Shown piece after piece: positions 10,609 to 28,545 of a stretch of DNA of 64,000 nt. Under the pieces are notes generated by a model. The model worked only from the letters and a program-made list of their open reading frames with translations. It searched no databases and was not told the origin of the DNA. Both the position numbers and the translations under genes were made by a program. Positions within the stretch are counted from its first letter, which is position 1; the number at the start of each line of letters is the position of its first letter. This DNA comes from Frankiaceae bacterium (GTDB lineage: Bacteria > Actinomycetota > Actinomycetes > BP-191): positions 3,439 to 67,438 of the forward strand of contig DASZER010000046.1 in NCBI GenBank assembly GCA_035940575.1. Direction: 5' to 3'.

Positions 10609-10653
10609 GGCAAAGCCCCGCGACTCCCCTCCTGCTCGTCGCGGGGCTTTGCC
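10609..10653 (-). terminator. stem-loop terminator after the surface-protein gene
   Basis: Perfect 16-bp stem ggcaaagccccgcgac / gtcgcggggctttgcc with a 13-nt loop, 17 nt past the stop at 10670. Confidence 0.6.
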
Positions 10654-10669
10654 GAAGTGCCGTGCTGCC

Positions 10670-13455: not shown

Positions 13456-13644
13456 ATGGAGCGCGACCGCTTGATGACCCCCGGCGAGGTCGCGACGCTG
13501 TTCCGCGTCGACCCCAAGACCGTCACCCGCTGGGCCGTCGCGGGCCGCATCGGCAGCGTCCGTACGCCCGGTGGCCACCGCCGCTTCCGCGAGTCCGAGG
13601 TCCGCGCGCTCCTGCGCGGCGAGACCCGCGCCATCGCGGTCTAG
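13456..13644 (+). CDS. bldC: BldC-like small MerR/excisionase-type DNA-binding protein
   Basis: 62 aa MERDRLMTPGEVATLFRVDPKTVTRWAVAGRIGSVRTPGGHRRFRESEVRALL. It closely matches the Streptomyces BldC core (LLTPAEVATMFRVDPKTVTRWAKAGKL..IRTLGGHRRYREAEVRALL, from memory). GAGGAGG lies upstream of the ATG. Confidence 0.85.
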   Translation: MERDRLMTPGEVATLFRVDPKTVTRWAVAGRIGSVRTPGGHRRFRESEVRALLRGETRAIAV

Positions 13645-14264
13645 CCCTCCGAACGTTCGCGACGGGCGGCACCGAGGTCGCCCGTCCACCGCCGGTAGAG
13701 GTCGTGCTCCACGCCCAGCGCGTCGAGCACCCTCCCGGCCACGAAGTCCACGAGCTCCTGGACGGTCGAGGTCCCCGCGTAGAACGCCGGGCTCGCCGGC
13801 AGCACCACGGCCCCCGCGTCGTGCAGGGCCAGCATCGCCACCAGGTGCCCGCGGTCGAGAGGCGTCTCCCGCGGCACCACGACGAGCCTCCGCCGCTCCT
13901 TCAACGTCACGTCGGCGGCCCGCTGCACGAGGTCCTTCGACAGCCCTCCCGCGATGCCCGCGACGGCCGCCGTGCTGGCGGGGACGACGGCCATCCCGCG
14001 CGTGACGTACGAGCCGCTGCTCGGACCCGCGCCGAGGTCGCCTGGCCCCCAGTGTCGCACGTCGCCCTCGACGCCGACCCAGGCGTGCAGCGACGCCGCG
14101 TCGTCGTGCCACTGGATGCCGGTCTCGTCCAGCAGCGTGAGCCGCGCGGCGCGCGACACGACGAGGTCGACCGCGTGCCCGCCCTCGACCAGCGCGCGGA
14201 CGACGGCGGCGGCGTACGGCGTGCCGCTCGCGCCGGTGACGCCGACGACGTACGGCGCCCTCAT
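13641..14264 (-). CDS. ubiX: flavin prenyltransferase UbiX family
   Basis: 207 aa MRAPYVVGVTGASGTPYAAAVVRAL...VVPASTAAVAGIAGGLSKDLVQRAADVTLKERRRLVVVPRETP. ATGA overlap with the upstream gene. Confidence 0.85.
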   Translation of the reverse strand: MRAPYVVGVTGASGTPYAAAVVRALVEGGHAVDLVVSRAARLTLLDETGIQWHDDAASLHAWVGVEGDVRHWGPGDLGAGPSSGSYVTRGMAVVPASTAAVAGIAGGLSKDLVQRAADVTLKERRRLVVVPRETPLDRGHLVAMLALHDAGAVVLPASPAFYAGTSTVQELVDFVAGRVLDALGVEHDLYRRWTGDLGAARRERSEG

Positions 14265-15142
14265 GCCGCGCGGTCCAGCAGCGCGAACGCGAACAGGCCG
14301 ATGCCGACGTAGCCGTTGACGGTGAAGAACGCGCGGTTGACGCGCGACAGGTCGCCGGGCTTCACGATCGCGTGCTCGTACGCCAGCGCCCCGGCCGTCA
14401 GCGCGACGCCCGCCCACCACGCCCACCCGAGGCCCGCGTCGAGCCCGAACGCCACCAGCAGCGCCAGCGTCACGACGTGCGTCGCGACGGAGACGCGCAG
14501 CGCGGTCGCGACGCCGAAGCGGGCTGGCAGCGAGTGGACGCCGTTCGCGCGGTCGCTGTCGACGTCCTGGCAGGCGTAGACGAGGTCGAAGCCGGCGATC
14601 CAGGTGCCGACCGCGAGCCCGAGCCACAGCGCGGGCCGCGCGCCGTCGAACGTCTTCGACATCGCCACCCACGCGCCGACGGGCGCGATCGCCTGCGCGA
14701 GGCCGAGGACGTAGTGGCAGAGCCAGGTGAACCGCTTGGCGTACGGGTACAGCGTGAGCGGCGCGAGGGCGACCGGCGCGAGCGCGAGGCAGAGCGGGTC
14801 GAGCGCGAGCGCGGCGAGCAGGAAGATGGCGAGCGCGACGGCCATGCCGCCGTACGCCACCGAGACCGGCAGCGCGCCGGTCACGAGCTCGCGGCTCGCG
14901 GTGCGGGGGTTGCGCGCGTCGATCTCGCGGTCGATCACGCGGTTGGCCGCCATCGCGAACGTGCGCGCGGCCACCATCGCGACGGTGACGAGGAGCACGT
15001 CGAGCCAGTCGACGTCGGCGACGGCGGTCAGCGCGGCGATGTAGGCGAACGGCAGCGCGAACACCGAGTGCTCGATGACGACGAGCCGCAGGAAGCCCTT
15101 CACGCGCCCCTGGTGGACGACCGGCTCGGCGACGGTGCTCAC
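14261..15142 (-). CDS. mqnP: UbiA-family aromatic prenyltransferase (MqnP-like)
   Basis: 293 aa polytopic protein. UbiA motifs are NRVIDREIDARNPRT and the second Asp-rich region YACQDVDSD. GTGA overlap with the UbiD gene. Confidence 0.75.
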   Translation of the reverse strand: MSTVAEPVVHQGRVKGFLRLVVIEHSVFALPFAYIAALTAVADVDWLDVLLVTVAMVAARTFAMAANRVIDREIDARNPRTASRELVTGALPVSVAYGGMAVALAIFLLAALALDPLCLALAPVALAPLTLYPYAKRFTWLCHYVLGLAQAIAPVGAWVAMSKTFDGARPALWLGLAVGTWIAGFDLVYACQDVDSDRANGVHSLPARFGVATALRVSVATHVVTLALLVAFGLDAGLGWAWWAGVALTAGALAYEHAIVKPGDLSRVNRAFFTVNGYVGIGLFAFALLDRAA

Positions 15143-16578
15143 AAGCCCAGCTCACCCCAGCGGCGCGTGACGCGCTCGACGACGGCCGGGTCCTGCTCGA
15201 TCTCCGGCGGCCAGCCGCCGGCGCGCGCGTAGCCCTCGGTGGGCAGCTTGCGGGTCGCGTCGATGCCGGCCTTGCCGCCCCAGAACTGCTGGTACGCCGC
15301 GTGGTCGAGGTGGTCGACGGGGCCCGTCGACAGCAGCAGGTCGTGGGCGTAGTCGACGTTGCCGAACGCCCGCCACGCGACCTCGGAGTAGTCGTGCACG
15401 TCGCAGTCGGCGTCGACCACGACGACGAGCTTCGTCAGGGAGAGCAGGCCCGCGCCCCAGATCGCGTTCATCACCTTCTGCGCCTGCTTCGGGTAGCGCT
15501 TCTCGACCGAGACGATCGCGCAGTTGTGGAACACGCCCTCGACCGGCAGGTCGTAGTCGACGATCTCGGGCACCGTCATCTGGATCAGCGGTAGGAAGAT
15601 GCGCTCGGTCGCCTTGCCGAGCCACTCGTCCTCCTGCGGGGGACGCCCGACGACGATCGTCTGGAACACCGGGTCGCGCCGCATCGTCATCACGTCGACC
15701 GTCAGCGCGGGGAACGGCTCGACCGGCGTGTAGAAGCCGGTGTGGTCGCCGAACGGCCCCTCCGGCAGCCGTACCCCCGGCTCGAGCCAGCCCTCGAGGA
15801 CGATCTGCGCGTCGGCGGGGACCTGCAACGGCACCGAGAGGCAGTCGACCAGCTCGATCCGCTCGCCCTTGAGGAACCCGGCGAACAGGTACTCGTCGAT
15901 GCCCGGCAACGGCGCGCTGGCCGAGTAGGTCACGACCGGCTCGCAGCCGAACGCGATCGCGACCGGCAGCCGCTCGCCGCGCCGCTCGGCGACGGCGTGG
16001 TGGGCGTTGGAGTCCTTGTGGATCTGCCAGTGCATGCCCACCGTGCGCTTGTCGTGGCGCTGGAGCCGGTACATGCCGAGGTTGCGCGTGCCCTCGGTGG
16101 GGTGGCGCGTGTGGGTGAGGCCGAGGTTCAGGAACGCGCCGCCGTCGAGCGGCCACGTGTGCAGCGCGGGGAGGTCGTAGAGGTCGATCTCGTCACCGCG
16201 ACGGACGACCTCCTGGCACGGCGCGGTCTTGACCTTCTTCGGCGGGACCGAACGCAGCGAGAGCAGCTTGCCGAGGGACTCCCTGATGCCGGAGAGGCCG
16301 ACCGGCAGCTCGGGCCGCACGAGGTCGCGGATGCGGTCGCCGATGTCGTCCAGCCGCGCGACGCCGAGCGCGGCGGCCATGCGGCGCTCGGTCCCGAAGA
16401 CGTTGATGGCCAGGGGCATCGAGGAGCCGGTGACGTTCTCGAACAGCAGCGCCGGGCCGCCCGCGCGGGTCACGCGCTGGACGATCTCGGTCACCTCGAG
16501 GTGCGGGTCGACCGGCGCCTTGACCCGCTTGAGGTCGCCGTCCTTCTCGAGACGGCGGAGGAACGCGTCGAGGCTCAC
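15139..16578 (-). CDS. ubiD: UbiD-family (prFMN-dependent) decarboxylase
   Basis: 479 aa starting from GTG 16578 (VSLDAFLRRLEKDGDLKRVKAPVDPHLEVTEIVQRV...). Full-length UbiD-like. The upstream part of ORF 15139..16974 is Arg-rich shadow. Confidence 0.85.
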   Translation of the reverse strand: MSLDAFLRRLEKDGDLKRVKAPVDPHLEVTEIVQRVTRAGGPALLFENVTGSSMPLAINVFGTERRMAAALGVARLDDIGDRIRDLVRPELPVGLSGIRESLGKLLSLRSVPPKKVKTAPCQEVVRRGDEIDLYDLPALHTWPLDGGAFLNLGLTHTRHPTEGTRNLGMYRLQRHDKRTVGMHWQIHKDSNAHHAVAERRGERLPVAIAFGCEPVVTYSASAPLPGIDEYLFAGFLKGERIELVDCLSVPLQVPADAQIVLEGWLEPGVRLPEGPFGDHTGFYTPVEPFPALTVDVMTMRRDPVFQTIVVGRPPQEDEWLGKATERIFLPLIQMTVPEIVDYDLPVEGVFHNCAIVSVEKRYPKQAQKVMNAIWGAGLLSLTKLVVVVDADCDVHDYSEVAWRAFGNVDYAHDLLLSTGPVDHLDHAAYQQFWGGKAGIDATRKLPTEGYARAGGWPPEIEQDPAVVERVTRRWGELGL

Positions 16579-17108
16579 TGCCCCACCCTGCCGTCGATCG
16601 CCTGGCGCAGCAGGTCGGCGTGGCCCATGTGCCGCGCGTACTCCTCGATCATGTGCAGCATCACCCAGCGCAGGGAGACCCGCTTCTCCACGCCGACGAG
16701 GTCGAGGTCGTTGCGCTCGAAGAAGTCCTCGGCGTACGCCACCTCCTCGCGCCACGCGGCCCACGCCTCGTCCACGCCGTCGGCGCTCGCGCGGTCCCAG
16801 GCCGCGTCCACGTCGTCGTCGCGCTTGAACGGGCGCGGCGCGTCCTCGCCCGCGAGGCCGCGGCGGAACCATCCGCACTCCACGTCGGCCATGTGGCGTA
16901 CGAGGCCCAGCAGCGACATCGACGTCATCGGGACGGGGCGCGACGCGAGCTGCTCGGGTGTCAGCCCCTCGCACTTGAGGACGAGCGTCTCGCGCTGCCA
17001 GCGCAGGAAGCCGGCCAGCAGCTCGCGCTCGGTGCCGGCCCTCGGGACGTCCGTACGCGGGTCGTCGCCGGGGTCGACGAAGACGTCAGCGAACGGGGTC
17101 GTGCTCAG
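16575..17108 (-). CDS. DinB/DUF664-family protein, probable non-canonical CTG start
   Basis: Family region ERELLAGFLRWQRETLVLKCEGLTPEQL...SLLGLVRHMADVECGWF...HMIEEYARHMGHADLLRQ. There is no ATG/GTG/TTG between the far-upstream ATG 17378 and the internal MTSMS. CTG at 17108 overlaps the upstream stop as CTGA. Confidence 0.55.
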   Translation of the reverse strand: MSTTPFADVFVDPGDDPRTDVPRAGTERELLAGFLRWQRETLVLKCEGLTPEQLASRPVPMTSMSLLGLVRHMADVECGWFRRGLAGEDAPRPFKRDDDVDAAWDRASADGVDEAWAAWREEVAYAEDFFERNDLDLVGVEKRVSLRWVMLHMIEEYARHMGHADLLRQAIDGRVGQ

Positions 17109-17323
17109 TGCGCCTCGGCGCTCTCGGAGGCGCCGACCTGCTCGGTGGGGAACCGGTGCGGCGACGACTCGCGCGGCCCGTCGGAGAACGCCGCGAGGTA
17201 GTACGCCGCGATGCCCAGGATCAGCAGCGCGAGCGCGAGGTACCAGCGCGGCGCGGGGTTGTGGTCGACCTCGTCCCCGTCGCCGGTCGCGATCGGGTCG
17301 ATGAACAGCGGCCGCTCGGTCAC
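17105..17323 (-). CDS. 72-aa single-TM membrane protein
   Basis: MTERPLFIDPIATGDGDEVDHNPAPRWYLALALLILGIAAYYLAAFSDG... ATGA overlap with the CcoO-like gene. Confidence 0.55.
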   Translation of the reverse strand: MTERPLFIDPIATGDGDEVDHNPAPRWYLALALLILGIAAYYLAAFSDGPRESSPHRFPTEQVGASESAEAH

Positions 17324-17832
17324 TCGGACTCCTCGCAGGTGTGCTCGACGAGGAACGCCGCGAGCCGTTCGAGGTCACGGTGCACGAGGTGGCGGTACGA
17401 CGGCATCGTCGAGCCGGGATGCGCGGCGGCCGGGTCCTTGAGGTACTCGACCATCGCCGCGACCTTCTGCTCCTTGGTCGCGCCGTCCTCCGCGCCGGGC
17501 ACGCGGTCGCCGGCGCAGGCGAGGTCGGGGCCGTAGCGCGCCTGGCCCTGCAGGCCCGGCACGTCGTTGAGACCCTCGCCCGCGCTGCTCGGGCCCGCGG
17601 CGAGGTCGGCGTCGGTGAAGGCGTCGCGCACCTGGCGGGTGTGGCAGTAGACGCAGCCGTTGGAGCCGTAGAGGCCGCGGCCCTTCGCGCCCGCGACGCT
17701 GTGCTCGCGCGTCGCGTCGGTACGGGTCGTGGTGACGTCGGCCGTGGCGGGCGCGACGACCGTGGCGCCGTAGCCGAGGGCCACGAGCAGCGCGGGCCCG
17801 GCGAGCACGGGGAGCAGCGTCATGCGGCGCAT
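17320..17832 (-). CDS. CcoO/FixO-type monoheme cytochrome c (cbb3 oxidase subunit II-like)
   Basis: 170 aa with N-terminal TM MRRMTLLPVLAGPALLVALGYG. Heme site GRGLYGSNGCVYCHTRQVRD compares with canonical G.xxYxxEGCxxCHSQxxR. Distal region RYGPDLACAGDR...HPGSTMPSYRHL compares with GPDL...MPxY. Confidence 0.75.
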   Translation of the reverse strand: MRRMTLLPVLAGPALLVALGYGATVVAPATADVTTTRTDATREHSVAGAKGRGLYGSNGCVYCHTRQVRDAFTDADLAAGPSSAGEGLNDVPGLQGQARYGPDLACAGDRVPGAEDGATKEQKVAAMVEYLKDPAAAHPGSTMPSYRHLVHRDLERLAAFLVEHTCEESE

Positions 17833-17834
17833 CG

Positions 17835-19253
17835 TCACGACTCCTCGGGCGCCAGCGGGTCGCCGGCGGTCGACGTGGAGAACACCTGCTGGAACGCCGT
17901 CACGAGCGCGAACGTCACGAGCACCTCGCCCACGACGCGCAGCCAGAGCAGCGGGCGGATCGCGTCGGTGACGCGTACCCACGCGTCGCCGGTCGCGACC
18001 GAGGAGCCGTCGCGGACGCCCTGCGCGAGCAGCACGCCCTGGACGTAGCCCGCGACGAGCAGCGACAGCGCGACGAGCAGGACGCCGACGACGAGCGGCC
18101 AGGCGGCGTTGGCCGCGAGGCGCGGGTTGGTGATGCGGTTGCCCGACGCGGCCGGCAGCACGTGGAACACGCCCGCCAGGATGCCCGCGGCCGCGACGCC
18201 GAGCAGCGCGAGCTCGGACAGGCCGTCGGAGGCGACGCTGGCGTGCAGGAAGTCGCCCGCCGTACGCCCCGCCGTCGTCCCGGCGAGCAGCGCCCACGCG
18301 CCGAGCAGGCCGGCGGCGGCGAGGCCGAAGCGGAGGTCGGCGCCGTGCGCCAGCGCGGTGCGGCGCGCGTAGGTGCTCGCGACGAGCGTGACGTAGGCCA
18401 GGACGCCCGCGCCGAGCGCGATCGTCGCGGCGATGCCGACCGACTCGAGCCAGTCCTGCGCCGGCCCCCCGGCGAGGCGGGCCGCCCCCGCGAACGGCGC
18501 GAACACGAACCAGCCCCAGAACGCCGCCACGGCGAGCTGGCGGCTGTGCAGCGGCGCGCGCGACGACACCGGGATCGCGTAGAGCGCGAGGCCGAGCGCG
18601 AGCGGGACGAGCCAGAGCAGCTTGAGCCCGGACAGGCCGAACGCGAGCACCATCTCGTCGTTGACGCCGCGCACGCGCGGCAGCGCGCCGAACAGGATCA
18701 CGACGGGCGCGCAGAACAGCGCGCCGACCACGAACCACAGCGACGGGTGGACCTCGTCCTCGCGGCGCTTCGAGACCGTGCGCAGCACCGAGCAGAGCAG
18801 CAGGAGCTGGCCGAGCGCGATCAGCACGGCGAGCGGGCGCGGCATCTCGAAGCCCACGCGGCCGTTGCCGTGGCCGGTCAGCACCGCGAGCACCGAGCCG
18901 ACGACGCCGACCGTGACGATCGCGCCCGCGGCCTTGGAGAGGTTGTCGAGCTGGACGGGCGCCTTGGCGAGCCGGCGCGCGACGTCGAGGGCGGCGCCGT
19001 TGCCGAGCATGCCGAGGCCGCCGTAGGTGACCAGCAGGAACGCCGCCGGGCGCAGCCTGCCGACGTTCGTCGCCGCGCCGACCGTGAACACGTCGGCCGC
19101 GACCGTCTGCACCGAGACGAGCAGCAGCAGGAACGCGCCCAGGGCGAGGAACACCACGCCCGCGAGCAGCCAGGTCAGCGTCGACGCGGAGGGCTGCTCC
19201 CACGTGGGGGCGCTGGACTCCGACGCCGTCGACGGCGACGTCGTGACAGCCAC
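17835..19253 (-). CDS. cbb3-type oxidase subunit I (CcoN/FixN) homologue lacking the canonical His metal ligands
   Basis: 472-aa polytopic protein. It retains CcoN signature stretches (VGRLRP, EVHPSLWFVVGALF, QDWLESVGIA, AGYVQGVLL). Where CcoN has LHT, WWYGHNAVGF, WAGPHHLHY and GHVHSGALG, it has AAF, LAFGLSGLKL, FAGAARLAG and SDGLSELALLG. The comparison is from memory of Pseudomonas stutzeri CcoN. Confidence 0.6.
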   Translation of the reverse strand: MAVTTSPSTASESSAPTWEQPSASTLTWLLAGVVFLALGAFLLLLVSVQTVAADVFTVGAATNVGRLRPAAFLLVTYGGLGMLGNGAALDVARRLAKAPVQLDNLSKAAGAIVTVGVVGSVLAVLTGHGNGRVGFEMPRPLAVLIALGQLLLLCSVLRTVSKRREDEVHPSLWFVVGALFCAPVVILFGALPRVRGVNDEMVLAFGLSGLKLLWLVPLALGLALYAIPVSSRAPLHSRQLAVAAFWGWFVFAPFAGAARLAGGPAQDWLESVGIAATIALGAGVLAYVTLVASTYARRTALAHGADLRFGLAAAGLLGAWALLAGTTAGRTAGDFLHASVASDGLSELALLGVAAAGILAGVFHVLPAASGNRITNPRLAANAAWPLVVGVLLVALSLLVAGYVQGVLLAQGVRDGSSVATGDAWVRVTDAIRPLLWLRVVGEVLVTFALVTAFQQVFSTSTAGDPLAPEES

Positions 19254-19340
19254 GCGGCAACCTCCGGGGACGCGGACGCAGGATCGGCCCAGATGTTAGT
19301 GGGGCGGGCACGCACGGCGCGAAACGCGCGCCGCGCGACC

Positions 19341-19703
19341 TCAGTCGTGCGCGGTACGCGGCTTGCGAATCCGCTTGGCGGGCGGAGCGTCCACGGTCTT
19401 GGCCGGCTTGGCGTCCGGGGCCGCACCGTCGTTCGAGTTCAGGAAGGCGTTGAGGGCGTCGCGTGTCAGGTCGGACACCGACCGTCCCGTCCTCTGGGCG
19501 AACGCCACGACCTTGCCGTGGAGGTCCGAGGGGATGCGCGTGTTCAGCGCCTTGCTCGTCCCGCCCTCGGCGGACAGCGACGGGCGGCCCGCCTTGCGCA
19601 GCGGGTTCGGGACCGCGGGACCGACCTCGCGCGCATCGAGCCCCTTCTCGGCCTTCGCGAGCGCGGCGGCCTCGCGCTCGGGGGTCCACGGCTTCTTCGT
19701 CAT
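19341..19703 (-). CDS. ribbon-helix-helix (CopG/BrnA-like) antitoxin
   Basis: 120 aa starting at ATG 19703. RHH segment is GRPSLSAEGGTSKALNTRIPSDLHGKVVAFAQRTGRSVSDLTRDALNAFL. Lies 5 nt downstream of the small toxin-like gene. Confidence 0.6.
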   Translation of the reverse strand: MTKKPWTPEREAAALAKAEKGLDAREVGPAVPNPLRKAGRPSLSAEGGTSKALNTRIPSDLHGKVVAFAQRTGRSVSDLTRDALNAFLNSNDGAAPDAKPAKTVDAPPAKRIRKPRTAHD

Positions 19704-19708
19704 CGTCG

Positions 19709-19981
19709 TCACCTGGTCGTCTGGTCGTAGAGGGGCCGGTACTTGGGGCGCATCGGCATCACGTGGAAGATCCGTACGGCCTCGGCTCCCAGGAGCCGCA
19801 CCATGACCTCCAGCGGGACGCCGTTCGGGTCGTCGCCGAGGAACAGCAACAGGTCGGGGTCGGGCTCGCCGTCCTCGTCCACGACCGGGAACGCCGTCGG
19901 TGCCGTGTCGAGCACATGCCGCGCACGGGCGCGAGAGACGCCGTGCCTGGCCGCCGACTGCGCCCACTCGTACCGAGGCAT
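19709..19981 (-). CDS. putative toxin of a toxin-first TA pair (BrnT-like arrangement)
   Basis: 90 aa MPRYEWAQSAARHGVSRARARHVLD...VRIFHVMPMRPKYRPLY. The small size, toxin-then-RHH order and W..x..HGVS / I.H.M..R motifs recall BrnT-type toxins. The family assignment is tentative. Confidence 0.45.
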   Translation of the reverse strand: MPRYEWAQSAARHGVSRARARHVLDTAPTAFPVVDEDGEPDPDLLLFLGDDPNGVPLEVMVRLLGAEAVRIFHVMPMRPKYRPLYDQTTR

Positions 19982-20031
19982 GCCCCGGAATTCTGTCACA
20001 CAAAAAGGTGGGCGGCAACGGGCCGGCCGGT

Positions 20032-20961
20032 CTAGACCCCGGCGTAGGAGTGCAGGCCCGACACCCAGATGTTGACGACGTAGTACGTCACCATCAGCGA
20101 GGCGAAGCCGGCGACGGCGATCCAGGCGGCGCGGCGGCCGCGCCAGCCGGCGGTCGAGCGCGCGTGCAGGTAGCCGGCGTAGACGACCCAGGTCACGAAC
20201 GACCAGGTCTCCTTCGGGTCCCAGCCCCAGTACCGCCCCCACGCGGCCTCGGCCCAGACGGCACCGGCCATGACGGTGAACGTCCACACAGGGAAGCCGA
20301 ACGCGTGCACGCGGTACGACACCCGGTCCAGCGTCGCCGCGGACGGCAGGCGCGAGGGCTTGTCGGGCGCGCGGCGGTCGCGCCAGGAGCGCCACAGGTA
20401 CAGCGCGGCGGCGACGAAGCCGACCATGAAGATGCCCGACGACGCCATGGCGCCGACGACGTGGATCTTGATCCAGTACGAGTTGAGCGCGGGGACGAGC
20501 GGGGCGGCGGGCGCGTAGAGGACGAGCGCCGCGACGCCGAGGTAGAGGATCACCGGCAGCATCACGAAGCCGCCGAGGTGGCGCAGCGGGTGGCGGCGGA
20601 TCACGCCGAGCCACGCGACGACGGCGAACAGCGACACCATCGACGAGAACTCGTACATGTTGCCCCACGGCACGCGGTCGACCGCGAGGCCGCGCGTGAC
20701 GGCGGATGCGACGTGCAGCAGCAGGCCCACGACGGTTGCGACGACGGCGACGCGGCCGGCGAGGCGCGGCACCCGCGAGGGCGCGGCGACCGCGGCGGCG
20801 ACGGGCGCCGGCACGGTGTCGACGGCGCCGCCCGCGATGGGGCGCGGCGCGAGGCGGCCGAACGACAGCTCCACGAAGTAGCCGAACATCGCGACGACGT
20901 ACGCGATCACCGCCGCGAACAGCAGCGTGTCGCTCGCCCGCGCGAGCCCCTCGTCGATCAC
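20032..20961 (-). CDS. ccsB: cytochrome c biogenesis protein CcsB/ResC (system II heme handling)
   Basis: 309 aa starting at GTG 20961 (GTGA overlap). Trp-rich WWD-type region is WAEAAWGRYWGWDPKETWSFVTW. Polytopic. Confidence 0.85.
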   Translation of the reverse strand: MIDEGLARASDTLLFAAVIAYVVAMFGYFVELSFGRLAPRPIAGGAVDTVPAPVAAAVAAPSRVPRLAGRVAVVATVVGLLLHVASAVTRGLAVDRVPWGNMYEFSSMVSLFAVVAWLGVIRRHPLRHLGGFVMLPVILYLGVAALVLYAPAAPLVPALNSYWIKIHVVGAMASSGIFMVGFVAAALYLWRSWRDRRAPDKPSRLPSAATLDRVSYRVHAFGFPVWTFTVMAGAVWAEAAWGRYWGWDPKETWSFVTWVVYAGYLHARSTAGWRGRRAAWIAVAGFASLMVTYYVVNIWVSGLHSYAGV

Positions 20962-22502
20962 GGCTTCTCCAGCGACGCTTGCAACGACTCGGCCACGCTC
21001 GCGAGCTCCGGCTCGTACCCCGCCGGGTCCTGGCGCGCGAGCCCGCCGACCTCCACGAGGGTACCCGCCTCGGTCGCGGTCGCCTTCACCCAGAGCCGCC
21101 GCCTGCGGATCCGCAGCGACAGGATCAGGCCGGTCAACGCCAGGATCGCCGCGACGAGCACGACCCGCTTGCCCGGGTCGGAGTTGACGTGCAGGACCGC
21201 GAAGTCCTTCACGCCGTCGAACTCCACGGTCAGCCCGCCGGGCAGCCGCTCGATCGTCTCGCCGAGGAACGCCACGCCCCCGCCCGCGCGCACCATCCCC
21301 TCCGTGTCGAGCTCGTAGACGTTCTGCGGCAGGCCGCTGTCGAGGCCGAGGCTGCCCGCCCACGTCTCGTAGACGAACGCCGGGATCAGCGCCTCGGGCG
21401 CGGCCGAGAACACCGTCTGCCCCCGCCGCGCGTACGTCGGCACGAACCGCCCGCGCAGCCCCACGTCGGGCAGCCCGCCGCCGAGGTCGGAGACCTTGAC
21501 GACGCCGTCGGAGACGAGGTTGGCCGCGCCCCTGTCGGGGAGGAACGGCTGCCACTGGTCGTAGACGACGGTGCCGTCGGGCAGGCGCGCGGTGAAGTGC
21601 AGCGCGTAGCCGTGGTCGAGCAGGTAGACCCGCGCGCCGCGCACGGTCAGCGGCTCGTTGACCCGGACGGTCCGCTTCCGGTCTGGCGCGCCCACCGAGG
21701 GGCGCCAGCGCACGTCGACCTCGTACGACGACGGCGCGCCGTTGGGCAGGAACCGCGCCCTGAAGTCGTCCACCGTCACCTCGAACGGCGGCAGGTCGTC
21801 GCCGGTGTTGAGGCGGCCGGGGTGCAGCTCGTCGTACGCCGCCGGCGTGTTGACGAACGTGTCGCCCTCCACGACGAGCACGTCGCCGCGGTACCCCCAC
21901 GCGGCGCCCATCGCGACGCCGGCGAGCAGGCCGAGCAGCGCGAGGTGGAACGCGATGTTGCCGGTCTCGCGCACGTAGCCGCGCTCGGCGGACAGGCCGG
22001 TGTCGTACGGCCGCACGCGCCAGCGCCGCAGCGACCGCCGGGCCGCGTCGTAGACCTCGGTAGGCGACGCCGACGTCGTGAACGACCGCGAGACGGGGAG
22101 GCGCGAGAGGTTGCGCGGCGGCGCCGGCGGGACCGAGCGCAGCGCGCGCACGTGCAGCCGGATGCGCGGGGTGAGGCAGCCGACGAGCGACACCATCAGC
22201 GCGAGGTAGATCGCGCCGAACCACGGCGAGGCGTAGACGTCGAACGCGTACAGCCGGTCCAGCCACGGCGCGAGCGACGGGTGGTCGCCGTAGTAGCCGG
22301 CGACGCCCGACGGGTTGAGCGAGCGCTGCGGCAGCAGCGAGCCCGGCACCGCCGCGACGGCGAGCAGGAACAGCAGCAGCAACGCCGTCCGCATCGACGT
22401 CCACGTACGCCACGCCCTGCGCATCGCCGCGCCGGGCCCGACGCGGGGCGGCGCGGGCGCGCGGTCCTCTGGCGAGGTGGAGAGCTCGGTCGTCGCGGTC
22501 AC
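20958..22502 (-). CDS. resB: cytochrome c biogenesis protein ResB/Ccs1
   Basis: 514 aa starting at GTG 22502 (GTGA overlap). N-terminus is WRTWTSMRTALLLLFLLAVAAVPGSLLPQR, followed by a large extracytoplasmic domain and a C-terminal TM. Confidence 0.85.
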   Translation of the reverse strand: MTATTELSTSPEDRAPAPPRVGPGAAMRRAWRTWTSMRTALLLLFLLAVAAVPGSLLPQRSLNPSGVAGYYGDHPSLAPWLDRLYAFDVYASPWFGAIYLALMVSLVGCLTPRIRLHVRALRSVPPAPPRNLSRLPVSRSFTTSASPTEVYDAARRSLRRWRVRPYDTGLSAERGYVRETGNIAFHLALLGLLAGVAMGAAWGYRGDVLVVEGDTFVNTPAAYDELHPGRLNTGDDLPPFEVTVDDFRARFLPNGAPSSYEVDVRWRPSVGAPDRKRTVRVNEPLTVRGARVYLLDHGYALHFTARLPDGTVVYDQWQPFLPDRGAANLVSDGVVKVSDLGGGLPDVGLRGRFVPTYARRGQTVFSAAPEALIPAFVYETWAGSLGLDSGLPQNVYELDTEGMVRAGGGVAFLGETIERLPGGLTVEFDGVKDFAVLHVNSDPGKRVVLVAAILALTGLILSLRIRRRRLWVKATATEAGTLVEVGGLARQDPAGYEPELASVAESLQASLEKP

Positions 22503-23260
22503 AGCGCGGTCTCGAACCCGCCGATCCAGACCTGCATCCGCGCCACGATCCGCGTCCACTCGCCGGTGACGAGCAGCACGCCGATCAGCACGAGGAACCC
22601 GCCGCCGATCCGCGTGACGAGCGCGTAGTGGCGCTTCACGACCGCGAACGCCGCCATGGAGCGCTCGAACGCGAGCCCCGCCAGCACGAACGGCAGGCCG
22701 AGGCCGAGGCAGTAGAACAGCGAGAGCAGCGCGCCGCGGCCCGCCGTGCCGGTGGAGTAGGCGAGGGAGTTGACGGCGGTCAGCGTCGGCCCCGCGCACG
22801 GCGTCCAGCCGACGCCGAACAGCACGCCCAGCAGCGGCGCCCCCGCGAGCCCGGTCTTCGGCAGCGCATGGATGCGGAACTCCCGCGAGAACAGCGACAC
22901 CCGCGACAGCGCGCCCATGAACGCCAGGCCGAGCACGATGGTCACGACGCCGAGCACCCGCGTGATCGCGTCGGCGTGGTCGGCGAACACCCGCCCCGCC
23001 GCGCCGAACGCCGCGCCCGCCGAGACGAACACCACCGAGAAGCCGAGCACGAACAGCAGCCCGCCCACGACCACCCGCGAGCGCTGCCGCGCGGTGACGT
23101 CGGCCTCCGCGAGGTCGGCGCCGGTGAGGCCGGTGACGAAGGACAGGTAGCCCGGCACGAGCGGCAGCACGCACGGCGAGAGGAAGGACACGAGCCCGGC
23201 CAAGACCGCGATCGGGATGGCGGCCAGCAGCGACCCGGAGAGGACGGTGTCCTGGATCAC
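22499..23260 (-). CDS. ccdA: cytochrome c biogenesis thiol-reductant transporter CcdA (DsbD family)
   Basis: 253 aa starting at GTG 23260. Conserved Cys motifs are FLSPCVLPLVPGY and GWTPCAGPTL. Confidence 0.85.
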   Translation of the reverse strand: MIQDTVLSGSLLAAIPIAVLAGLVSFLSPCVLPLVPGYLSFVTGLTGADLAEADVTARQRSRVVVGGLLFVLGFSVVFVSAGAAFGAAGRVFADHADAITRVLGVVTIVLGLAFMGALSRVSLFSREFRIHALPKTGLAGAPLLGVLFGVGWTPCAGPTLTAVNSLAYSTGTAGRGALLSLFYCLGLGLPFVLAGLAFERSMAAFAVVKRHYALVTRIGGGFLVLIGVLLVTGEWTRIVARMQVWIGGFETAL

Positions 23261-23823
23261 GGCGCCCGCTCCGCGAGCACCCGGTCGACGAGCGTCCGCA
23301 GCGGCGCCTCGTCGAGCACGCCGAACGCGTACGCCGCGACGCGGCCCGACCTGTCGACGACGTAGGTGGCGGGCGGCGACTTCGGCACGGTCTCGAACAG
23401 CGTGAGCAGCCGCCCCGGCTCGTCGTGGAAGGAGGGGTACGTCACGCCGTAGCGCTCGACGTGCCGCCTCGCGGCGACGGCGTCGTCGCGGATGTCGATG
23501 CCGACGAACGCCACGCCCCGCGAACGCGTGTCGCGCCAGACGCGTTCCAGGTGCGGCTGCTCGGCGCGGCACGGGACGCACCAGGCGCCCCACACGTTCA
23601 CCACCGCGACGCCGCCGCCGCGCAGCTCCGCGAGCGAGAGCGGCCTGCCGTCCAGGCCCTCGCCCGCCAGCGCCGGGGCGGGCTCGCGAGAGCCCGTGGA
23701 GACGTACGTCACCACGGCGTCGCCGGCGACGTAGCGCTCCGCGCCGTCGGGCGCGCCGCCGCGCGTGCAGCCCGCCGCCGCCACCAGGGCGAGCGCGAGC
23801 GCCACGGCGCGGAGGCGGGGCAC
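23257..23823 (-). CDS. resA: TlpA/ResA-type thiol-disulfide oxidoreductase lipoprotein
   Basis: About 188 aa. Lipobox LVAAAGC and thioredoxin motif VNVWGAWCVPCRAE. The GTG 23823 start is approximate. Confidence 0.75.
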   Translation of the reverse strand: MPRLRAVALALALVAAAGCTRGGAPDGAERYVAGDAVVTYVSTGSREPAPALAGEGLDGRPLSLAELRGGGVAVVNVWGAWCVPCRAEQPHLERVWRDTRSRGVAFVGIDIRDDAVAARRHVERYGVTYPSFHDEPGRLLTLFETVPKSPPATYVVDRSGRVAAYAFGVLDEAPLRTLVDRVLAERAP

Positions 23824-23997: not shown

Positions 23998-24312
23998 ATG
24001 GCCAACCCGCTCCAGCGGTCCCAGTGGCTCCGCGTGGCCTTCGGGTCGCTGCTCTGCACGATGCTGTTCATGGTGTTCTTCGCGGCCGTCCCCTCGGCGA
24101 TCATCAACTGGTCCGACGGCTGGTCCTGGGTCCAGGCGCCCGAGACGTTCGGCGTCCTCGGCCTCGGCAAGCGGCTCCGCGACCTGATCATCGTCGGCTG
24201 GTACGGCGCCATCACCCCCGTCACGTTCGTCGCGTTCTCGCTCTGGCAGAAGCTGCACCCGGTCAACGCCGATGCGGACGAGCCGAAGCGCGACGCGGGC
24301 GGCTACCGCTAG
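23998..24312 (+). CDS. 104-aa membrane protein, first gene of the b6-type operon
   Basis: ATG 23998 is preceded by GAGGAAGG. Product MANPLQRSQWLRVAFGSLLCTMLFMVFFAAVPSAII...IIVGWYGAITPVTFVAFSLW has 2-3 hydrophobic segments. Confidence 0.6.
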   Translation: MANPLQRSQWLRVAFGSLLCTMLFMVFFAAVPSAIINWSDGWSWVQAPETFGVLGLGKRLRDLIIVGWYGAITPVTFVAFSLWQKLHPVNADADEPKRDAGGYR

Positions 24313-24328
24313 ACGGAGGCGCGCCCAC

Positions 24329-24682
24329 ATGACCGACAACCGCGTCGAGATCTACGACGACTACGTCCTCGGCACCGTCGACCCCAACTGGCTCCAGGAG
24401 CGGGTCAAGCCGAAGCGTCACATCGCGCTCTCCCCCGAGCTGTGCATCCTCTGTCGGGCGTGCGAGGACGTGTGCCCGTGGGAGTGCATCTACATGATGT
24501 CGCCCGACATCGTCGCGGGCGCGGAGAGCAGCGACCTCAAGACGCTCTCGGAGACGGCGGGCGCCGTCTTCATCATCGACGACAACGAGTGCACCCGGTG
24601 CGGCATCTGCGTCGACCGCTGCCCGCCCGGCGCGCTGTTCTACTCGAAGATCGGCGAAGCCGCCGCGAAGAAGAAGCACTAG
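24329..24682 (+). CDS. 2x[4Fe-4S] ferredoxin-type protein
   Basis: 117 aa with two motifs, CILCRACEDVCP and CTRCGICVDRCP. 16 nt after the previous gene and 12 nt before cytochrome b6. Confidence 0.8.
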   Translation: MTDNRVEIYDDYVLGTVDPNWLQERVKPKRHIALSPELCILCRACEDVCPWECIYMMSPDIVAGAESSDLKTLSETAGAVFIIDDNECTRCGICVDRCPPGALFYSKIGEAAAKKKH

Positions 24683-24694
24683 GAGGTCGGGCCG

Positions 24695-25492
24695 GTGGCC
24701 GAGAAGGACGGTCGTCTCAACGAGGCGAAGGACGCCCTCGTCGAGATGGTGAAGCCGAAGGACCCGCGCGAGGGCGCGGTCTGGAAGTCCATCTTCCGCC
24801 CCGGCTCGATCTACCGCCCCGGGTACAGGGACACGTCGCGCGACCGCGCGCTCGCGACGATGAACAACGTCCTGTACCACCTGCACCCGGTGAAGCTGAA
24901 GCGCCACGGCCTCAAGCTCACCTACACGTACTGCCTCGGCGGCCTGTCGTTCTTCCTGTTCATCGTGCTGACGGTGACGGGCATCTACCTGATGTTCTTC
25001 TACCGGCCCTCGGCCGGCTTCGGGCAGGAGCTCGCGTACCGCGACATCCAGAACCTGTCGTCGGGCATCGCGTTCGGCCAGCTCGTCCGCAACATGCACC
25101 GATGGTCGGCGCACGGCATGGTCTTCACGGTCTTCCTGCACATGGCGCGCGTCTTCTACCACGGCGCGTACAAGGCACCGCGCGAGTTCAACTGGGTCGT
25201 CGGCGTCATCCTGCTGCTGCTGACCCTGCTGCTGTCGTTCACGGGCTACCTGCTCCCGTGGGACCAGCTCGCGATCTGGGCCGTCGCCGTCGGCACGCAG
25301 ATGATGGGCTACACGCCGGTCTTCGGTGCCGAGGTGCGCTTCGTGCTCCTGGGCGGCGTCGAGATCGGGCCGCCCACCCTCCTCCGCTGGTACGTCCTCC
25401 ACGTCCTCGCGCTGCCATTCGTGGCGGTCATCTTCATGGCCGTCCACTTCTGGCGGATCCGCAAGGACGGCGGAATCTCCGGACCTCTGTAA
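24695..25492 (+). CDS. cytochrome b6-type subunit (N-terminal four-helix half of cytochrome b)
   Basis: 265 aa. His pairs lie in VRNMHRWSAHGMVFTVFLHMARVF and LRWYVLHVLALPFVAVIFMAVHFWRIRKDGGISGPL. The YCLGG Cys is present. The C-terminus is almost identical to plastid/cyanobacterial b6 (...IRKQGISGPL). Confidence 0.85.
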   Translation: MAEKDGRLNEAKDALVEMVKPKDPREGAVWKSIFRPGSIYRPGYRDTSRDRALATMNNVLYHLHPVKLKRHGLKLTYTYCLGGLSFFLFIVLTVTGIYLMFFYRPSAGFGQELAYRDIQNLSSGIAFGQLVRNMHRWSAHGMVFTVFLHMARVFYHGAYKAPREFNWVVGVILLLLTLLLSFTGYLLPWDQLAIWAVAVGTQMMGYTPVFGAEVRFVLLGGVEIGPPTLLRWYVLHVLALPFVAVIFMAVHFWRIRKDGGISGPL

Positions 25493-25501
25493 GGGGCGTC
25501 G

Positions 25502-26398
25502 ATGGCTGAAGAGATCACCCCGGACCCCGAGGTCTACGCCGCCGCGATCGCGGCCGGCGACTCGGAGCGGATGGCGCGCGCCAAGGCCAAGTCAGCCGCG
25601 GTGAAGAAGGCGCGCAAGGCGGCGGGCATCCCGTCGCCGGCCGAGCAGGCCGCGGCGGCCGCCGCCGCACCTGCCGCCGCCGCCGCGCCCGCCGCGAGCG
25701 ACGCGCCTCCCCCGGCCACCGCCGCTGCCGTCGCCGCCCCCGCCGCCACGGCGGGTGCCCCGGCCGCGGCTCCCGCGGCCGCCGCGGGTGGCGGTGGCAC
25801 GGCGACCCTGACGCGTTCGACGCCGCTGTCCCCCGCCGAGCGCGCGGCGCGCGTGGCCGCCGCGACGCAGGGCAAGGCCGGAGGCGGGCGCGGGCTGTCG
25901 GGCGAGATGACCCACCGCCTGCTGGCGATGGTCCCGCCGGAGGGCATCCAGCGCGTCGAGCGCACGCAGGACGACAAGGTCAACGTCTGGCCGCACCTGC
26001 TCCTCGAGGAGTTCGTCGCGGTCCTCGCGTGCACGGCGTTCCTCGTGCTGTTCTCGACGTTCGTCAACGCGCCGCTGCTGGACCTGGCGAACGTCAACCT
26101 GACGCCGAACCCCTCCAAGGCGCCGTGGTACTTCCTGGGCCTCCAGGAGCTGCTGCGCTACTACCACCCGATGATCGCCGGCGTGCTCATCCCCGGCATC
26201 GGCCTGGGCATCCTGATGGCGTTCCCCTACATCGACAAGAACCCGTCGATGCGGCCCGCCAACCGCAAGTTCGCGATCATGCTGTTCACGTTCTTCATGA
26301 TGTTCTCGGCGATCCTGTCGACGATCGGTTCCCTCTTCCGCGGGCCTGGCTACAACTTCATCTTCCCGTGGCAAAAGGGCCTCTACTTCGAGTTCTAG
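25502..26398 (+). CDS. subunit IV-like protein (C-terminal half of cytochrome b) with a ~150-aa Ala/Pro-rich N-terminal extension
   Basis: 298 aa. The C-terminal 3-TM domain contains NPSKAPWYFLGLQELLRY (PEWY-box equivalent). The N-terminus is low-complexity AAAAAPAAAAAP... Confidence 0.8.
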   Translation: MAEEITPDPEVYAAAIAAGDSERMARAKAKSAAVKKARKAAGIPSPAEQAAAAAAAPAAAAAPAASDAPPPATAAAVAAPAATAGAPAAAPAAAAGGGGTATLTRSTPLSPAERAARVAAATQGKAGGGRGLSGEMTHRLLAMVPPEGIQRVERTQDDKVNVWPHLLLEEFVAVLACTAFLVLFSTFVNAPLLDLANVNLTPNPSKAPWYFLGLQELLRYYHPMIAGVLIPGIGLGILMAFPYIDKNPSMRPANRKFAIMLFTFFMMFSAILSTIGSLFRGPGYNFIFPWQKGLYFEF

Positions 26399-26412
26399 CG
26401 AGAGGCAGGACG

Positions 26413-26973
26413 GTGGCGAAGAAGAAGGGCATGTCCCGGCGGGACTTCTTCCGCACGGGGATGCTCGGCAGCGCGGCGGTGTTCGGTGGCGGCTTCACCG
26501 CCGCCACCCTCGGCATGCTCTGGCCCAGCCTCAAGGGCGGCTTCGGCGCCAAGATCAACCTGGGCCGCGCGGACGACCTCAAGGCCGAGCTCGCCGCGAT
26601 CCCGCACAACTGGAAGTACTACGCCGAGGCGCGGTCGTACATCATCCTGTACACCCCCGCGGCCGGGCAGGAGGCGTTCTACAAGGGCGTCGCCGAGGGC
26701 GGGTTCCTCGCGACGTACCAGAAGTGCGCGCACCTCGGCTGCAAGGTCCCGCAGTGCGAGTCGAGCGGCTGGCTCGAGTGCCCGTGCCACGGCTCCCGCT
26801 ACAACAAGGCCGGCGAGTACGAGTTCGGCCCCGCGCCGCGCGGGCTCGACCACTTCCCGATCATCCTCGACGGCGACAACATCATCGTCGACACCGCCAC
26901 GCGCAAGGAAGGCCCGCCGCGCGGCACCAACACGATCAACCAGAACCCCGCCGGCGCGCACTGCCAGGGCTAG
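26413..26973 (+). CDS. Rieske [2Fe-2S] protein with Tat signal
   Basis: Cluster boxes are CAHLGC and CPCHGS. Twin-arginine motif is SRRDFFRTG. The start is GTG 26413 or ATG 26431. Confidence 0.85.
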   Translation: MAKKKGMSRRDFFRTGMLGSAAVFGGGFTAATLGMLWPSLKGGFGAKINLGRADDLKAELAAIPHNWKYYAEARSYIILYTPAAGQEAFYKGVAEGGFLATYQKCAHLGCKVPQCESSGWLECPCHGSRYNKAGEYEFGPAPRGLDHFPIILDGDNIIVDTATRKEGPPRGTNTINQNPAGAHCQG

Positions 26974-27012
26974 CCAGCCCTACCTGATCCGAGAAGGAGA
27001 CCCCTCCGAGCG

Positions 27013-27699
27013 ATGAGCGACATCTCCCCGCGCGAGCGGCGTTCCGACGCCGTAGCCCGGCGCAAGAAGCTCTCGGTCCCGATCGGGTTCCGTCCGGCGC
27101 CGTCCGACGACGAGCTGGAGACCAACGTCCTGGAGCGGTGGCAGGGCTGGGGCCTGCTCCTGCTGCTGTTCCTGGCGCTGTTCCTGCCGCTGTACTTCAT
27201 CTTCTTCGAGAACCAGCGCTCCAACGACGCCGCGCTCGAGCAGCGCGCGGAGTCGATCAGGCGGGGCGCCGCGATCTTCGCGCAGGGCAAGCCCGGCGCC
27301 CACGGCTTCCAGGCCGGGTGCGCGCGCTGCCACGGGACGTACGCCGGCGGCGGCGTCGTGCCGCAGTGGAAGGCCAACCCGACCGCCCAGCCCGCCGACG
27401 TCCCCGCGCCGTCGCTGACCGAGGTGTTCAAGCGCCAGATCGTCGACCTCAAGAAGACGCCGCGCGACGCCTACCGCTTCGTCTACGAGACGATCGCGCA
27501 GGGCCGCCCCGGCACGCCGATGCCCACGTGGGGCCTCGGCTACGGCGGCCCGATGAACGACCAGCAGATCGAGGACGTCATCAACTACCTGCTGTCGGTC
27601 CAGACCGGCCTGCCGGAGGAGGTCGCCAGCGAGATCGCGCTCGGCGACGGCTCCGGCGGCGCGTTCTCCCACCTCATCACCTTCGCCGCCTCGCGGTAG
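27013..27699 (+). CDS. membrane-anchored monoheme cytochrome c
   Basis: 228 aa with one TM (WGLLLLLFLALFLPLYFIFF), a single CARCH heme site and GRPGTPMPTWG as the Met-ligand region. Confidence 0.8.
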   Translation: MSDISPRERRSDAVARRKKLSVPIGFRPAPSDDELETNVLERWQGWGLLLLLFLALFLPLYFIFFENQRSNDAALEQRAESIRRGAAIFAQGKPGAHGFQAGCARCHGTYAGGGVVPQWKANPTAQPADVPAPSLTEVFKRQIVDLKKTPRDAYRFVYETIAQGRPGTPMPTWGLGYGGPMNDQQIEDVINYLLSVQTGLPEEVASEIALGDGSGGAFSHLITFAASR

Positions 27700-27711
27700 G
27701 AAAGGTTCGAC

Positions 27712-28545
27712 GTGCCGAACGTGTACGCCCTCGCCGCCCACCCGCTGGTCCAGCAGGTGGCGCAGGAGGAGGTCAAGACCAAGGGGCCCCGCGCCGTCTT
27801 CGGCGTGATCCTCATGTTCCTCATCCTCTGCGGCGGCGTCTGGATGCTGCTCCAGTCGTCGTTCGGGCCGTGGCAGGCGTACCTGATCTCGAGCGTCGCG
27901 TTCTGGGGCTCGTGGCTGGTGCTGTCCACGATCTGGCTCGTCGGCGTCCCCGGCGTCGGCGGGTGGATCCCGCGCTCGACGCCGCGCTTCAACGGCCCGC
28001 AGGGCGCCGAGGCGTCGTGGGTCGTGGTCAACCCGCACGGCGAGGACGAGAAGCTGAAGAAGGCGTTCGACGAGTTCGCGAACGGCGGCGACGCGGCGTT
28101 CTTCACGGTCGACGAGTCGCTCCAGGACCCGACCACGCAGTCGCAGAAGTCGTCGGCCGAGTCGGCCGCGAACGAGCGCATCTCCGAGGAGTACGCCCGC
28201 GACCTCGGCGTCGGCGCGGCCGACGTGACGTCGCCGAACGTCATCACGGTCACCGAGACGCAGCTCGGCAAGGAGGACGGCAAGTTCAAGTACGCGCGGA
28301 TCACGTTCGGCCCCGCGAAGCCGAACGCCACCGACAACGAGCCGACGAAGGCGCTCATCGCGCGGATCAAGCCGAAGACCATGGAGCTCGCGCTGCACGA
28401 GGGCTCGCTGGCGAGGCCGACGTACGTCGCGATGCCGCTGTTCGGCGTGCTGTTCCTCCTCCACGCGCTGCTGCTGGCCAGGTACGAGACCAAGCACGTG
28501 GACACCCCGCAGGGCGCGCCGGAACGGGTGACCGCGGGCGTCTGA
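27712..28545 (+). CDS. membrane protein of unknown function, last gene of the b6-type operon
   Basis: 277 aa with two N-terminal TMs, an acidic soluble domain of about 150 aa and a C-terminal TM (YVAMPLFGVLFLLHALLLA). 12 nt after the cytochrome c gene. Confidence 0.6.
   Translation: MPNVYALAAHPLVQQVAQEEVKTKGPRAVFGVILMFLILCGGVWMLLQSSFGPWQAYLISSVAFWGSWLVLSTIWLVGVPGVGGWIPRSTPRFNGPQGAEASWVVVNPHGEDEKLKKAFDEFANGGDAAFFTVDESLQDPTTQSQKSSAESAANERISEEYARDLGVGAADVTSPNVITVTETQLGKEDGKFKYARITFGPAKPNATDNEPTKALIARIKPKTMELALHEGSLARPTYVAMPLFGVLFLLHALLLARYETKHVDTPQGAPERVTAGV

Follow-up and report, generated by a model that had tools for sequence, protein, structure and literature searches.

What keeps a subunit I of the haem-copper oxidases in a genome once every residue that would have held its metals has gone? 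The question is raised by three adjoining reverse-strand genes in a 64,000-nucleotide stretch of a Frankiaceae bacterium assembly (contig DASZER010000046.1; hereafter the window). The first of them, at 17835..19253, encodes a homologue of CcoN, subunit I in cytochrome c oxidases of cbb3 type, of 472 amino acids (aa) with 12 predicted transmembrane helices. It is followed by the gene for a CcoO/FixO-type membrane-anchored monohaem cytochrome c (17320..17832, 170 aa) and by that for a small protein with a single transmembrane helix (17105..17323, 72 aa). A first-pass annotation, made from the letters of this stretch, had pictured a haem c subunit docked onto a dead oxidase scaffold, and its coordinates, open reading frame (ORF) lengths and quoted motifs were all recovered in the translations. 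Family, fold, conserved ligand loss, resB-like selection and tight gene coupling support that picture. We give an even chance to the fuller reading that the trio is a redox-inert 12-helix scaffold with a periplasmic one-electron carrier and serves as an accessory to the neighbouring Rieske/cytochrome b6 complex.

Subunit I of the haem-copper oxidases is normally defined by six invariant His ligands. Profile searches placed the 472-aa protein in this superfamily, in line with the CcoN/FixN assignment made at first pass: residues 26-445 match Pfam COX1 (PF00115) with 69.8 bits (E=2.8e-19) against a cut-off of 34.8. The score against the NCBIfam ccoN equivalog TIGR00780 was 60.5 bits, about one tenth of the cut-off of 583. 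An AlphaFold2 model built on 25 homologues reached a predicted local distance difference test (pLDDT) value of 85.6 and a predicted template-modelling score (pTM) of 0.88. The best Foldseek matches of this model were the CcoN chains of 3MK7, 8SMR, 9G83, 6XKW and 9G6B (template-modelling score, TM-score, 0.83-0.88), followed by NorB and then by A/B-family subunit I; against P. stutzeri CcoN the TM-score was 0.86-0.88 (0.86-0.87 for 3mk7_A), placing it in the 12-helix COX1 fold. By these profiles and the model, the protein is a full-length CcoN homologue.

Ligand positions were read from phmmer alignments of the 472-aa protein to the solved CcoN chains 3mk7_A and 9g6b_A, with Pseudomonas stutzeri numbering, and these reproduced the register that had earlier been drawn by eye. 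Both axial ligands of haem b were replaced (H60 by A71, H347 by E347), as were the proximal ligand of haem b3 (H345 by L345) and the three CuB ligands H207 (L207, or S208 in the canonical-profile alignment, neither of them His), H257 (A258) and H258 (R259). The cross-link tyrosine Y251 aligned with A252. All six His ligands and Y251 were likewise substituted in every one of the 50 family members described below, among which A252, R259 and E347 were invariant and A71 nearly so. Only six His occur in the whole window protein (128, 169, 236, 303, 337 and 364), none at a ligand position, and H169 alone is invariant across the family. The protein is therewith predicted to bind neither haem b, haem b3 nor CuB. 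In the same alignment the positions of S240, H243, Y317 and E323, which we take to form the cbb3 proton path, were occupied by Ala or Leu, so the cbb3 proton-pathway residues also appear to be lost. The loss of all ligands predicts that there is no O2 reduction or proton pumping and, because the proton-path residues have gone with them, the protein should be unable to reduce O2 or NO or to pump protons. It cannot, therefore, act as an oxidase of the kind known so far. E136, aligned with P. stutzeri E122, is invariant in the family, and a Glu is retained at this column in nearly all ligand-less representatives of the wider group considered next. E122 is presumably the periplasmic Glu at the N-O interface that serves as a Ca2+/propionate ligand in 3MK7, and the conserved E136, which outlasts the haems that it would have adjoined, may contact the CcoO-type subunit.

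The pseudo-oxidase described at first pass is real and is not peculiar to one genome: ligand-less CcoN homologues form a large radiation, of which it is part. Searching the family profile against 1.84 billion representative proteins returned 1175 matches at E<=0.001, and for the ligand census the best 149 of these were re-aligned to a profile made from canonical members only. No ligand His was present in 85 of the 149, one in 26, two in 16 and five or six in the remaining 22. Ligand loss, for which a survey of homologues had been suggested, is hence the rule in 50/50 members of the close family and in 127/149 representatives of the wider set (two or fewer of the six His). Direct alignment to 3mk7_A gave the same picture, P0202 and P0230 being ligand-less and P0323 canonical. 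Two proteins, P0076 and P0103, keep His at the two low-spin haem b axial positions only (patterns HEDSRRLH and HEEYRRYH), the haem b3 and CuB ligands being lost; such forms may represent stages on the way from the full set of cofactors to none.

A redox enzyme of a novel reductase type, holding haem or metal on ligands other than His, might be sought in the invariant E347 and R259 and in the retained Glu equivalent to E122. We consider it barely plausible, since all seven cofactor positions are substituted, mostly by Ala, Leu and Val, since the relatives P0054, P0056 and P0183 contain just one or two His in about 500 residues, and since the family alignment has no conserved Met, Cys, Lys or Tyr substituting at these sites.

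Many ligand-less proteins carry a C-terminal fusion, which is either a CxxCH-bearing FixO domain or a cupredoxin whose type-1 Cu motif, CDVHPNM, is intact. The partner of a ligand-less CcoN is thus a FixO-type cytochrome c, separate or fused, or a fused cupredoxin, so that an electron carrier on the P side is the constant feature. Examples of the cupredoxin form, of ~700 aa, are P0057, P0083 and P0208, the last encoded at 8001-10142 of locus L013; a ligand-less CcoN homologue of ~700 aa is also encoded at 9959-12109 of locus L021. Named members of the wider ligand-less clade come from metagenome-assembled genomes (MAGs) of Verrucomicrobia and Methylomirabilota. Among the 119 closest relatives of P0065, 109 were ligand-less and ten canonical; in a neighbour-joining tree computed without the ligand columns, 108 ligand-less proteins formed one clade with a mean identity of 57%, to which the ten canonical enzymes were sister at ~48% identity. 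Such trees are rough and do not fix the number of independent ligand losses. A tblastn search with P0113, one of the ligand-less representatives, against 72,556 plasmids (491 records, two of them translated) yielded no cultured carrier; its matches included Ralstonia, Cupriavidus and Paraburkholderia, and the Cupriavidus (L015) and Paraburkholderia (L016) loci were rejected as ligand-less candidates on their canonical pattern HEHYHHHH. In a pattern scan of metagenomes, a profile of 35 diverse ligand-less proteins proved too divergent, and a narrower profile gave three loci.

Close relatives were collected from a search of 5.8 billion proteins, which returned 50 CcoN-like sequences of 47-100% identity, nearly all of 462-499 aa and with 70 invariant columns. 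The named ones derive from uncultured Frankiaceae/Mycobacteriales MAGs, and nine species of the Genome Taxonomy Database (GTDB) carry the gene. In the closest pairs the ratio of nonsynonymous to synonymous substitution (dN/dS, omega; NG86 method) was 0.13-0.28 for the CcoN-like gene, about equal to resB and resC of the same pairs and above the 0.03 of cytochrome b6, values that are inflated in absolute terms by a near-saturated G+C content at third codon positions (GC3, ~0.99) and are used here only relative to neighbouring genes. For the L009-L010 pair, for instance, the CcoN-like gene gave 0.135, resB 0.154 and resC 0.199. The gene is maintained by selection together with its carrier protein.

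These data bear on the simplest alternative, namely that the trio is the decaying, functionless remnant of a cbb3 operon carried along within a respiratory cluster. Its catalytic residues are indeed all gone, the CcoN-like protein has evolved much faster than cytochrome b6 (47-81% against 89-98% identity across the related loci), and the haem domain of the partner has been deleted in one lineage. However, the ORFs are intact and of constant length, with the same invariant columns, down to 47% identity, omega lies well below 1 and equals that of resB, the AlphaFold2 model is confident, and ligand-less clades are deep and diverse, as the 108-member clade illustrates. We regard decay as very unlikely.

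The three genes of the trio (window G+C content ~73%) are closely packed. The GTG start of the CcoN-like gene is preceded, at a distance of 7 nt, by a GGAGG Shine-Dalgarno sequence; at the N/O junction (TGAcgATG) the ATG of the CcoO-like gene lies 2 nt past the CcoN-like stop, with GAGGAG upstream; and at the following junction (GTGA) the GTG of the 72-aa gene overlaps the CcoO-like stop codon. Each of the three starts is thus preceded by its own Shine-Dalgarno sequence (GAGGAG or GGAGG), a layout that would be expected for subunits produced together. Scanning 16400-20200 for promoters and terminators returned nothing.

In agreement with the first-pass view of a well-preserved CcoO/FixO neighbour, the 170-aa protein scored above the gathering threshold of Pfam FixO (E=4.1e-16, 59.6 bits, cut-off 29.6) and has the transmembrane anchor, a single CxxCH (C60) and the Met ligand of an MPSY motif, as well as two further conserved Cys (GPDLxC and LVxxxC). 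It matched the CcoO chains of 8smr, 9g6b, 6xkw and 3mk7 at E values of 1e-11 to 1e-10. It is shorter than CcoO, covering positions 19-146 of the 219 in the FixO profile, and reached 50.6 against the cut-off of 200 of the NCBIfam ccoO equivalog, about a quarter. In nine of ten species neither CxxCH nor the Met ligand varies. The 72-aa protein, encoded in all ten related loci, is a single-helix protein as first described. It has no CxxCH, leaving the trio without a dihaem CcoP. A profile search of the Protein Data Bank (PDB) with it gave no match; in Pfam, FixP_N was the top family for five of its ten homologues (best E=0.0029) and FixQ appeared for one, all below the cut-off. We amend its description accordingly: what is left here may be the N-terminal anchor of a former CcoP, or else a reduced CcoQ.

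One lineage, the most divergent, departs from this pattern. In locus L011 (the same as L002; 11395-11753) the CcoO-like gene encodes only 69 aa and the small protein 50 aa; CxxCH and the haem domain have been deleted from the former, which retains its transmembrane anchor, its C-terminal helix and the two non-haem Cys; the CcoN-like gene is intact. The complex of this lineage would hold no redox cofactor whatever. On the evidence of these gene sequences, the scaffold can be kept for its structural role alone.

Which respiratory system could such a trio serve? Gene calls for the window were taken from the identical JGI metagenome contig Ga0334906_000067, with families assigned by Pfam. Upstream of the trio and on the same strand, 20032..23805 holds the genes for System II cytochrome c maturation: resA (23257-23805), ccdA (22499-23260), resB (20958-22394) and resC/ccsA (20032-20961). 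Divergent from resA-ccdA-resB-resC and the trio is a forward-strand operon of seven genes (23998..28545), which encodes a 104-aa membrane protein (23998-24312), a leaderless 2x[4Fe-4S] ferredoxin (24329-24682), cytochrome b6 (24695-25492), a subunit-IV-like protein with an Ala/Pro-rich N-terminal extension of ~130 aa (25502-26398), a Rieske protein (26413-26973), a 228-aa monohaem cytochrome c with one CxxCH (27013-27699) and a 277-aa membrane protein (27712-28545). This Rieske/cytochrome b6-type complex is the putative partner of the trio. Its make-up is unusual, combining split cytochrome b6 and subunit-IV-like proteins with a ferredoxin, a monohaem cytochrome c and two membrane proteins; a ferredoxin at the cytoplasmic side is unusual in itself. 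The order Rieske/b6 operon, resA-ccdA-resB-resC, trio, ubiD-ubiA-ubiX was the same in all ten related loci, the operon being scored where enough flanking sequence was available. No assembly genes of the ccoGHIS type were found among the genes called within 10 kb on either side of the trio.

The wider group has neighbours of the same kind. Ten further ligand-less loci were read, and in all ten an operon for a quinol:cytochrome c oxidoreductase immediately precedes the gene. L013, L014 and L021 have a ferredoxin-cytochrome b-subunit IV-Rieske operon and resA-resB-resC as in the window; in L013 and L021 the gene for the scaffold-cupredoxin protein has the Rieske/b operon on one side and a caa3 operon on the other. 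Seven loci (L012, L018, L019, L020, the place of P0241, L022 and L023) follow an operon for alternative complex III (ACIII), complete or partly captured; in these the FixO gene comes next and then, wherever the contig is long enough, a further c-type cytochrome gene. P0323 (L017), once considered as a ligand-less example of the ACIII-linked clade, was rejected as a canonical enzyme; it is a member of the sister clade that holds the same place downstream of ACIII and serves as a control. We define the group by a CcoN fold in which His remains at no more than two of the six ligand sites, by a carrier partner on the P side and by a position beside a Rieske/b or ACIII operon; the window trio has 0/6 His, a CcoO-like partner and an adjoining Rieske/b6 operon.

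Proximity to the maturation genes invites another explanation, in which the trio assists in maturing cytochromes c or in handling haem, its empty pockets transiently binding or passing haem or the complex acting with ResB/ResC as an apocytochrome chaperone. In 10/10 Frankiaceae-type loci resC is followed immediately, on its own strand, by the CcoN-like gene, with a gap of only ~100 bp in L007-L011, and the deep relatives L013, L014 and L021 have the two genes in that arrangement as well. Yet ccs genes are expected anyway near operons rich in c-type cytochromes, and the seven ACIII-linked ligand-less loci have none adjoining. Moreover, the former ligand sites have lost every conserved residue of the types His, Cys and Met and so offer nothing obvious to hold a haem, and the partner can be a cupredoxin, which requires none. 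We judge this explanation unlikely. The distance from resC to the CcoN-like gene ranges from ~0.1 kb (L007-L011) to 2.3 kb (L003), a variability that indicates an insertion hot spot within the cluster. In the window this interval contains two small reverse-strand ORFs (120 and 68 aa; 19341-19915), for which an initial guess of a toxin-antitoxin pair was dropped as neither has a Pfam match.

Downstream of the trio, on the reverse strand, are genes for a mycothiol S-transferase (MST/DinB) family protein (16575-16928), a ubiD-type decarboxylase (15139-16578), a ubiA-type prenyltransferase (14261-15142) and a ubiX-type flavoprotein (13641-14264). The first of these, between the 72-aa gene and ubiD, is missing in several relatives, in which a gap of ~25-130 bp takes its place (L004, L008, L009, L010 and L011). 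The first-pass annotation had suggested a survey for co-occurrence with menaquinone (mqn) genes. More is to be learned from the Rieske/b6 operon and resABC: synteny of hem, ccs and menaquinone genes is general in actinobacterial genomes, so the mqn and ubiD-ubiA neighbours are probably background, and 13641..16928 as a whole is probably background actinobacterial synteny outside the module. Every Frankiaceae-type locus has ubiD/ubiA after the trio, but L013, L014 and L021 do not. Locus L018 has ubiX, ubiA and futalosine-pathway genes (radical SAM/CofH_C, VitK2_biosynth; 13056-16672) 3.5 kb downstream of its ACIII-linked module, an echo of the window that may be due to chance, since of the four such loci with DNA just this one shows it.

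Menaquinone genes beside the trio would also suit a minimal quinol:cytochrome c oxidoreductase, in which menaquinol bound in the vacated haem b pocket reduces the CcoO-type haem c, with R259 and E347 used for quinol binding or proton release. Both residues are invariant and buried, and they recur in the nearest ligand-less relatives (pattern FEQWIRNE). Most other ligand-less clades, however, lack R and E at these positions, a quinol oxidoreductase is already encoded beside the trio in every locus, and the mqn neighbours are, as argued above, probably background synteny. Such an enzyme seems to us decidedly unlikely.

Elsewhere, the remainder of the window carries haem synthesis and housekeeping genes. 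A reverse-strand ORF of 1608 aa (39871-44697) has a coding-like GC3 of 0.97 and no Pfam family; opposite-strand ORFs inside it (41228-41995 and 42770-44194) also have high GC3, so that either strand may be the coding one.

Across deep divergence and beside two unrelated complex-III-type neighbours, the scaffold and a periplasmic carrier are the constants, from which we infer carrier docking and an electron relay beside the Rieske/b6 complex. In the mechanism we propose, the CcoN-like 12-helix scaffold would hold the CcoO-type haem c carrier at the periplasmic side, together with the small transmembrane helix, and scaffold and carrier would dock beside the Rieske/cytochrome b6 complex as active cbb3 does in bc1-cbb3 supercomplexes. 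Electrons would pass from the complex's own monohaem cytochrome c, via the CcoO-type haem c, to a separate terminal acceptor, for example an aa3-type oxidase. The two monohaem cytochromes would then jointly stand in for the dihaem cytochrome cc of actinobacterial bcc-aa3 supercomplexes, and the scaffold may additionally stabilise the assembly.

Several points weigh against this scaffold-and-relay proposal. The trio is linked to the Rieske/b complex by gene adjacency alone; a terminal oxidase was looked for and none was found within the 64-kb window; and a docking face was sought in the conservation of the CcoN-like family, where none stands out (transmembrane segments 0.75, P-side loops 0.73, N-side loops 0.76). 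A 12-helix anchor is also costly for a single haem c. Finally, in L011/L002 the CcoN-like protein, the CcoO-like anchor and the small protein persist although the haem domain is gone, so electron relay cannot be the sole selected function and a purely structural role remains in that lineage. Each of the four alternatives nonetheless accounts for fewer observations than does a scaffold with a relay.

In the literature searched, a prior description of a ligand-less CcoN was not found, in agreement with the earlier remark that such a pseudo-oxidase has no described function; a PF00115 'unknown group' attributed to Muntyan et al. 2015 might overlap with it. Present classifications of the superfamily, for instance that with the families tabulated in PMC11214002, include no family without ligands. 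The group is large and apparently undescribed. As it is conserved, under selection and diverse, the scaffold itself would seem to have a second use, one tied to complex-III-type enzymes. We tentatively extend this, at somewhat less than an even chance, to the proposal that cofactor-free CcoN scaffolds are a widespread and so far overlooked class of respiratory subunit, former cbb3 oxidases that now serve as membrane docks by which a carrier, be it cytochrome c or a cupredoxin, is tethered to a Rieske/cytochrome b complex or to ACIII.

Such a class would matter for annotation. Both NCBI and JGI label these proteins 'cbb3-type cytochrome c oxidase subunit I', hence microaerobic, high-affinity respiration deduced from a COX1/FixN match can be wrong. 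ACIII-adjacent cbb3 genes have been read as high-affinity oxidases in genome papers (e.g., PMC6688271). If the proposal holds, many subunit I annotations of this sort, in MAGs of Actinomycetota, Verrucomicrobiota, Methylomirabilota and other groups, point mistakenly to O2 respiration of high affinity; inspection of the six His positions would put such cases right. The group would also provide a natural series, from the full enzyme through forms with haem b ligands only to those with none, and from haem c or cupredoxin partners to a cofactor-free lineage, in which the recruitment of dead enzymes by respiratory supercomplexes can be studied.

Compared with known systems, the trio is closest to cbb3 oxidase, CcoNO(Q)P (3MK7, 8SMR), with which it shares the 12-helix subunit I fold, the gene order N, O, small transmembrane protein, a CcoO-type monohaem c with transmembrane anchor, CxxCH and Met, and the Glu equivalent to E122. 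It differs in lacking the His ligands of haem b, haem b3 and CuB, Y251 and the proton-path residues, in having a 72-aa helix in place of the dihaem CcoP, and in having no ccoGHIS within 10 kb. By its ligands, the Tyr, CcoP and the equivalog scores it is not a member of the cbb3 oxidases. Nitric oxide reductases (NORs) also pair a 12-helix subunit with a monohaem c subunit in cNOR (NorBC), and NORs are the next-closest structures to the model after CcoN (4xyd_A and 3o0r_B, TM-score 0.76-0.80), but they retain all His ligands and the FeB Glu. In qNOR one half of the pair is without its cofactor, the NorC-like domain having lost its haem c (PMC11214002). The trio is the reverse case, losing the cofactors of the catalytic subunit and keeping the cytochrome c.

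At the level of gene clusters, the trio resembles complex III-IV supercomplexes (bc1-cbb3, 6XKW/8SMR; ACIII-caa3/aa3; bcc-aa3), in which genes for a quinol:cytochrome c oxidoreductase adjoin an oxidase-type module. ACIII clusters frequently precede those of oxygen reductases (PMC5928083), and in Corynebacterium a dihaem c1 provides a c-type haem relay in place of a soluble cytochrome c (PMC5040959). Unlike these, the 'complex IV' member of the trio has no catalytic centre, and a supercomplex that includes it is a proposal. A further parallel is the mitochondrial bc1 complex. Its inactive, peptidase-like core proteins are dead-enzyme structural subunits, and they share with the CcoN-like protein an enzyme fold kept under selection after the loss of catalysis, apparently for a structural role in an electron-transfer assembly. 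Those core proteins are soluble-domain subunits placed in solved complexes, whereas the CcoN-like protein would be an integral membrane catalytic core put to a comparable use.

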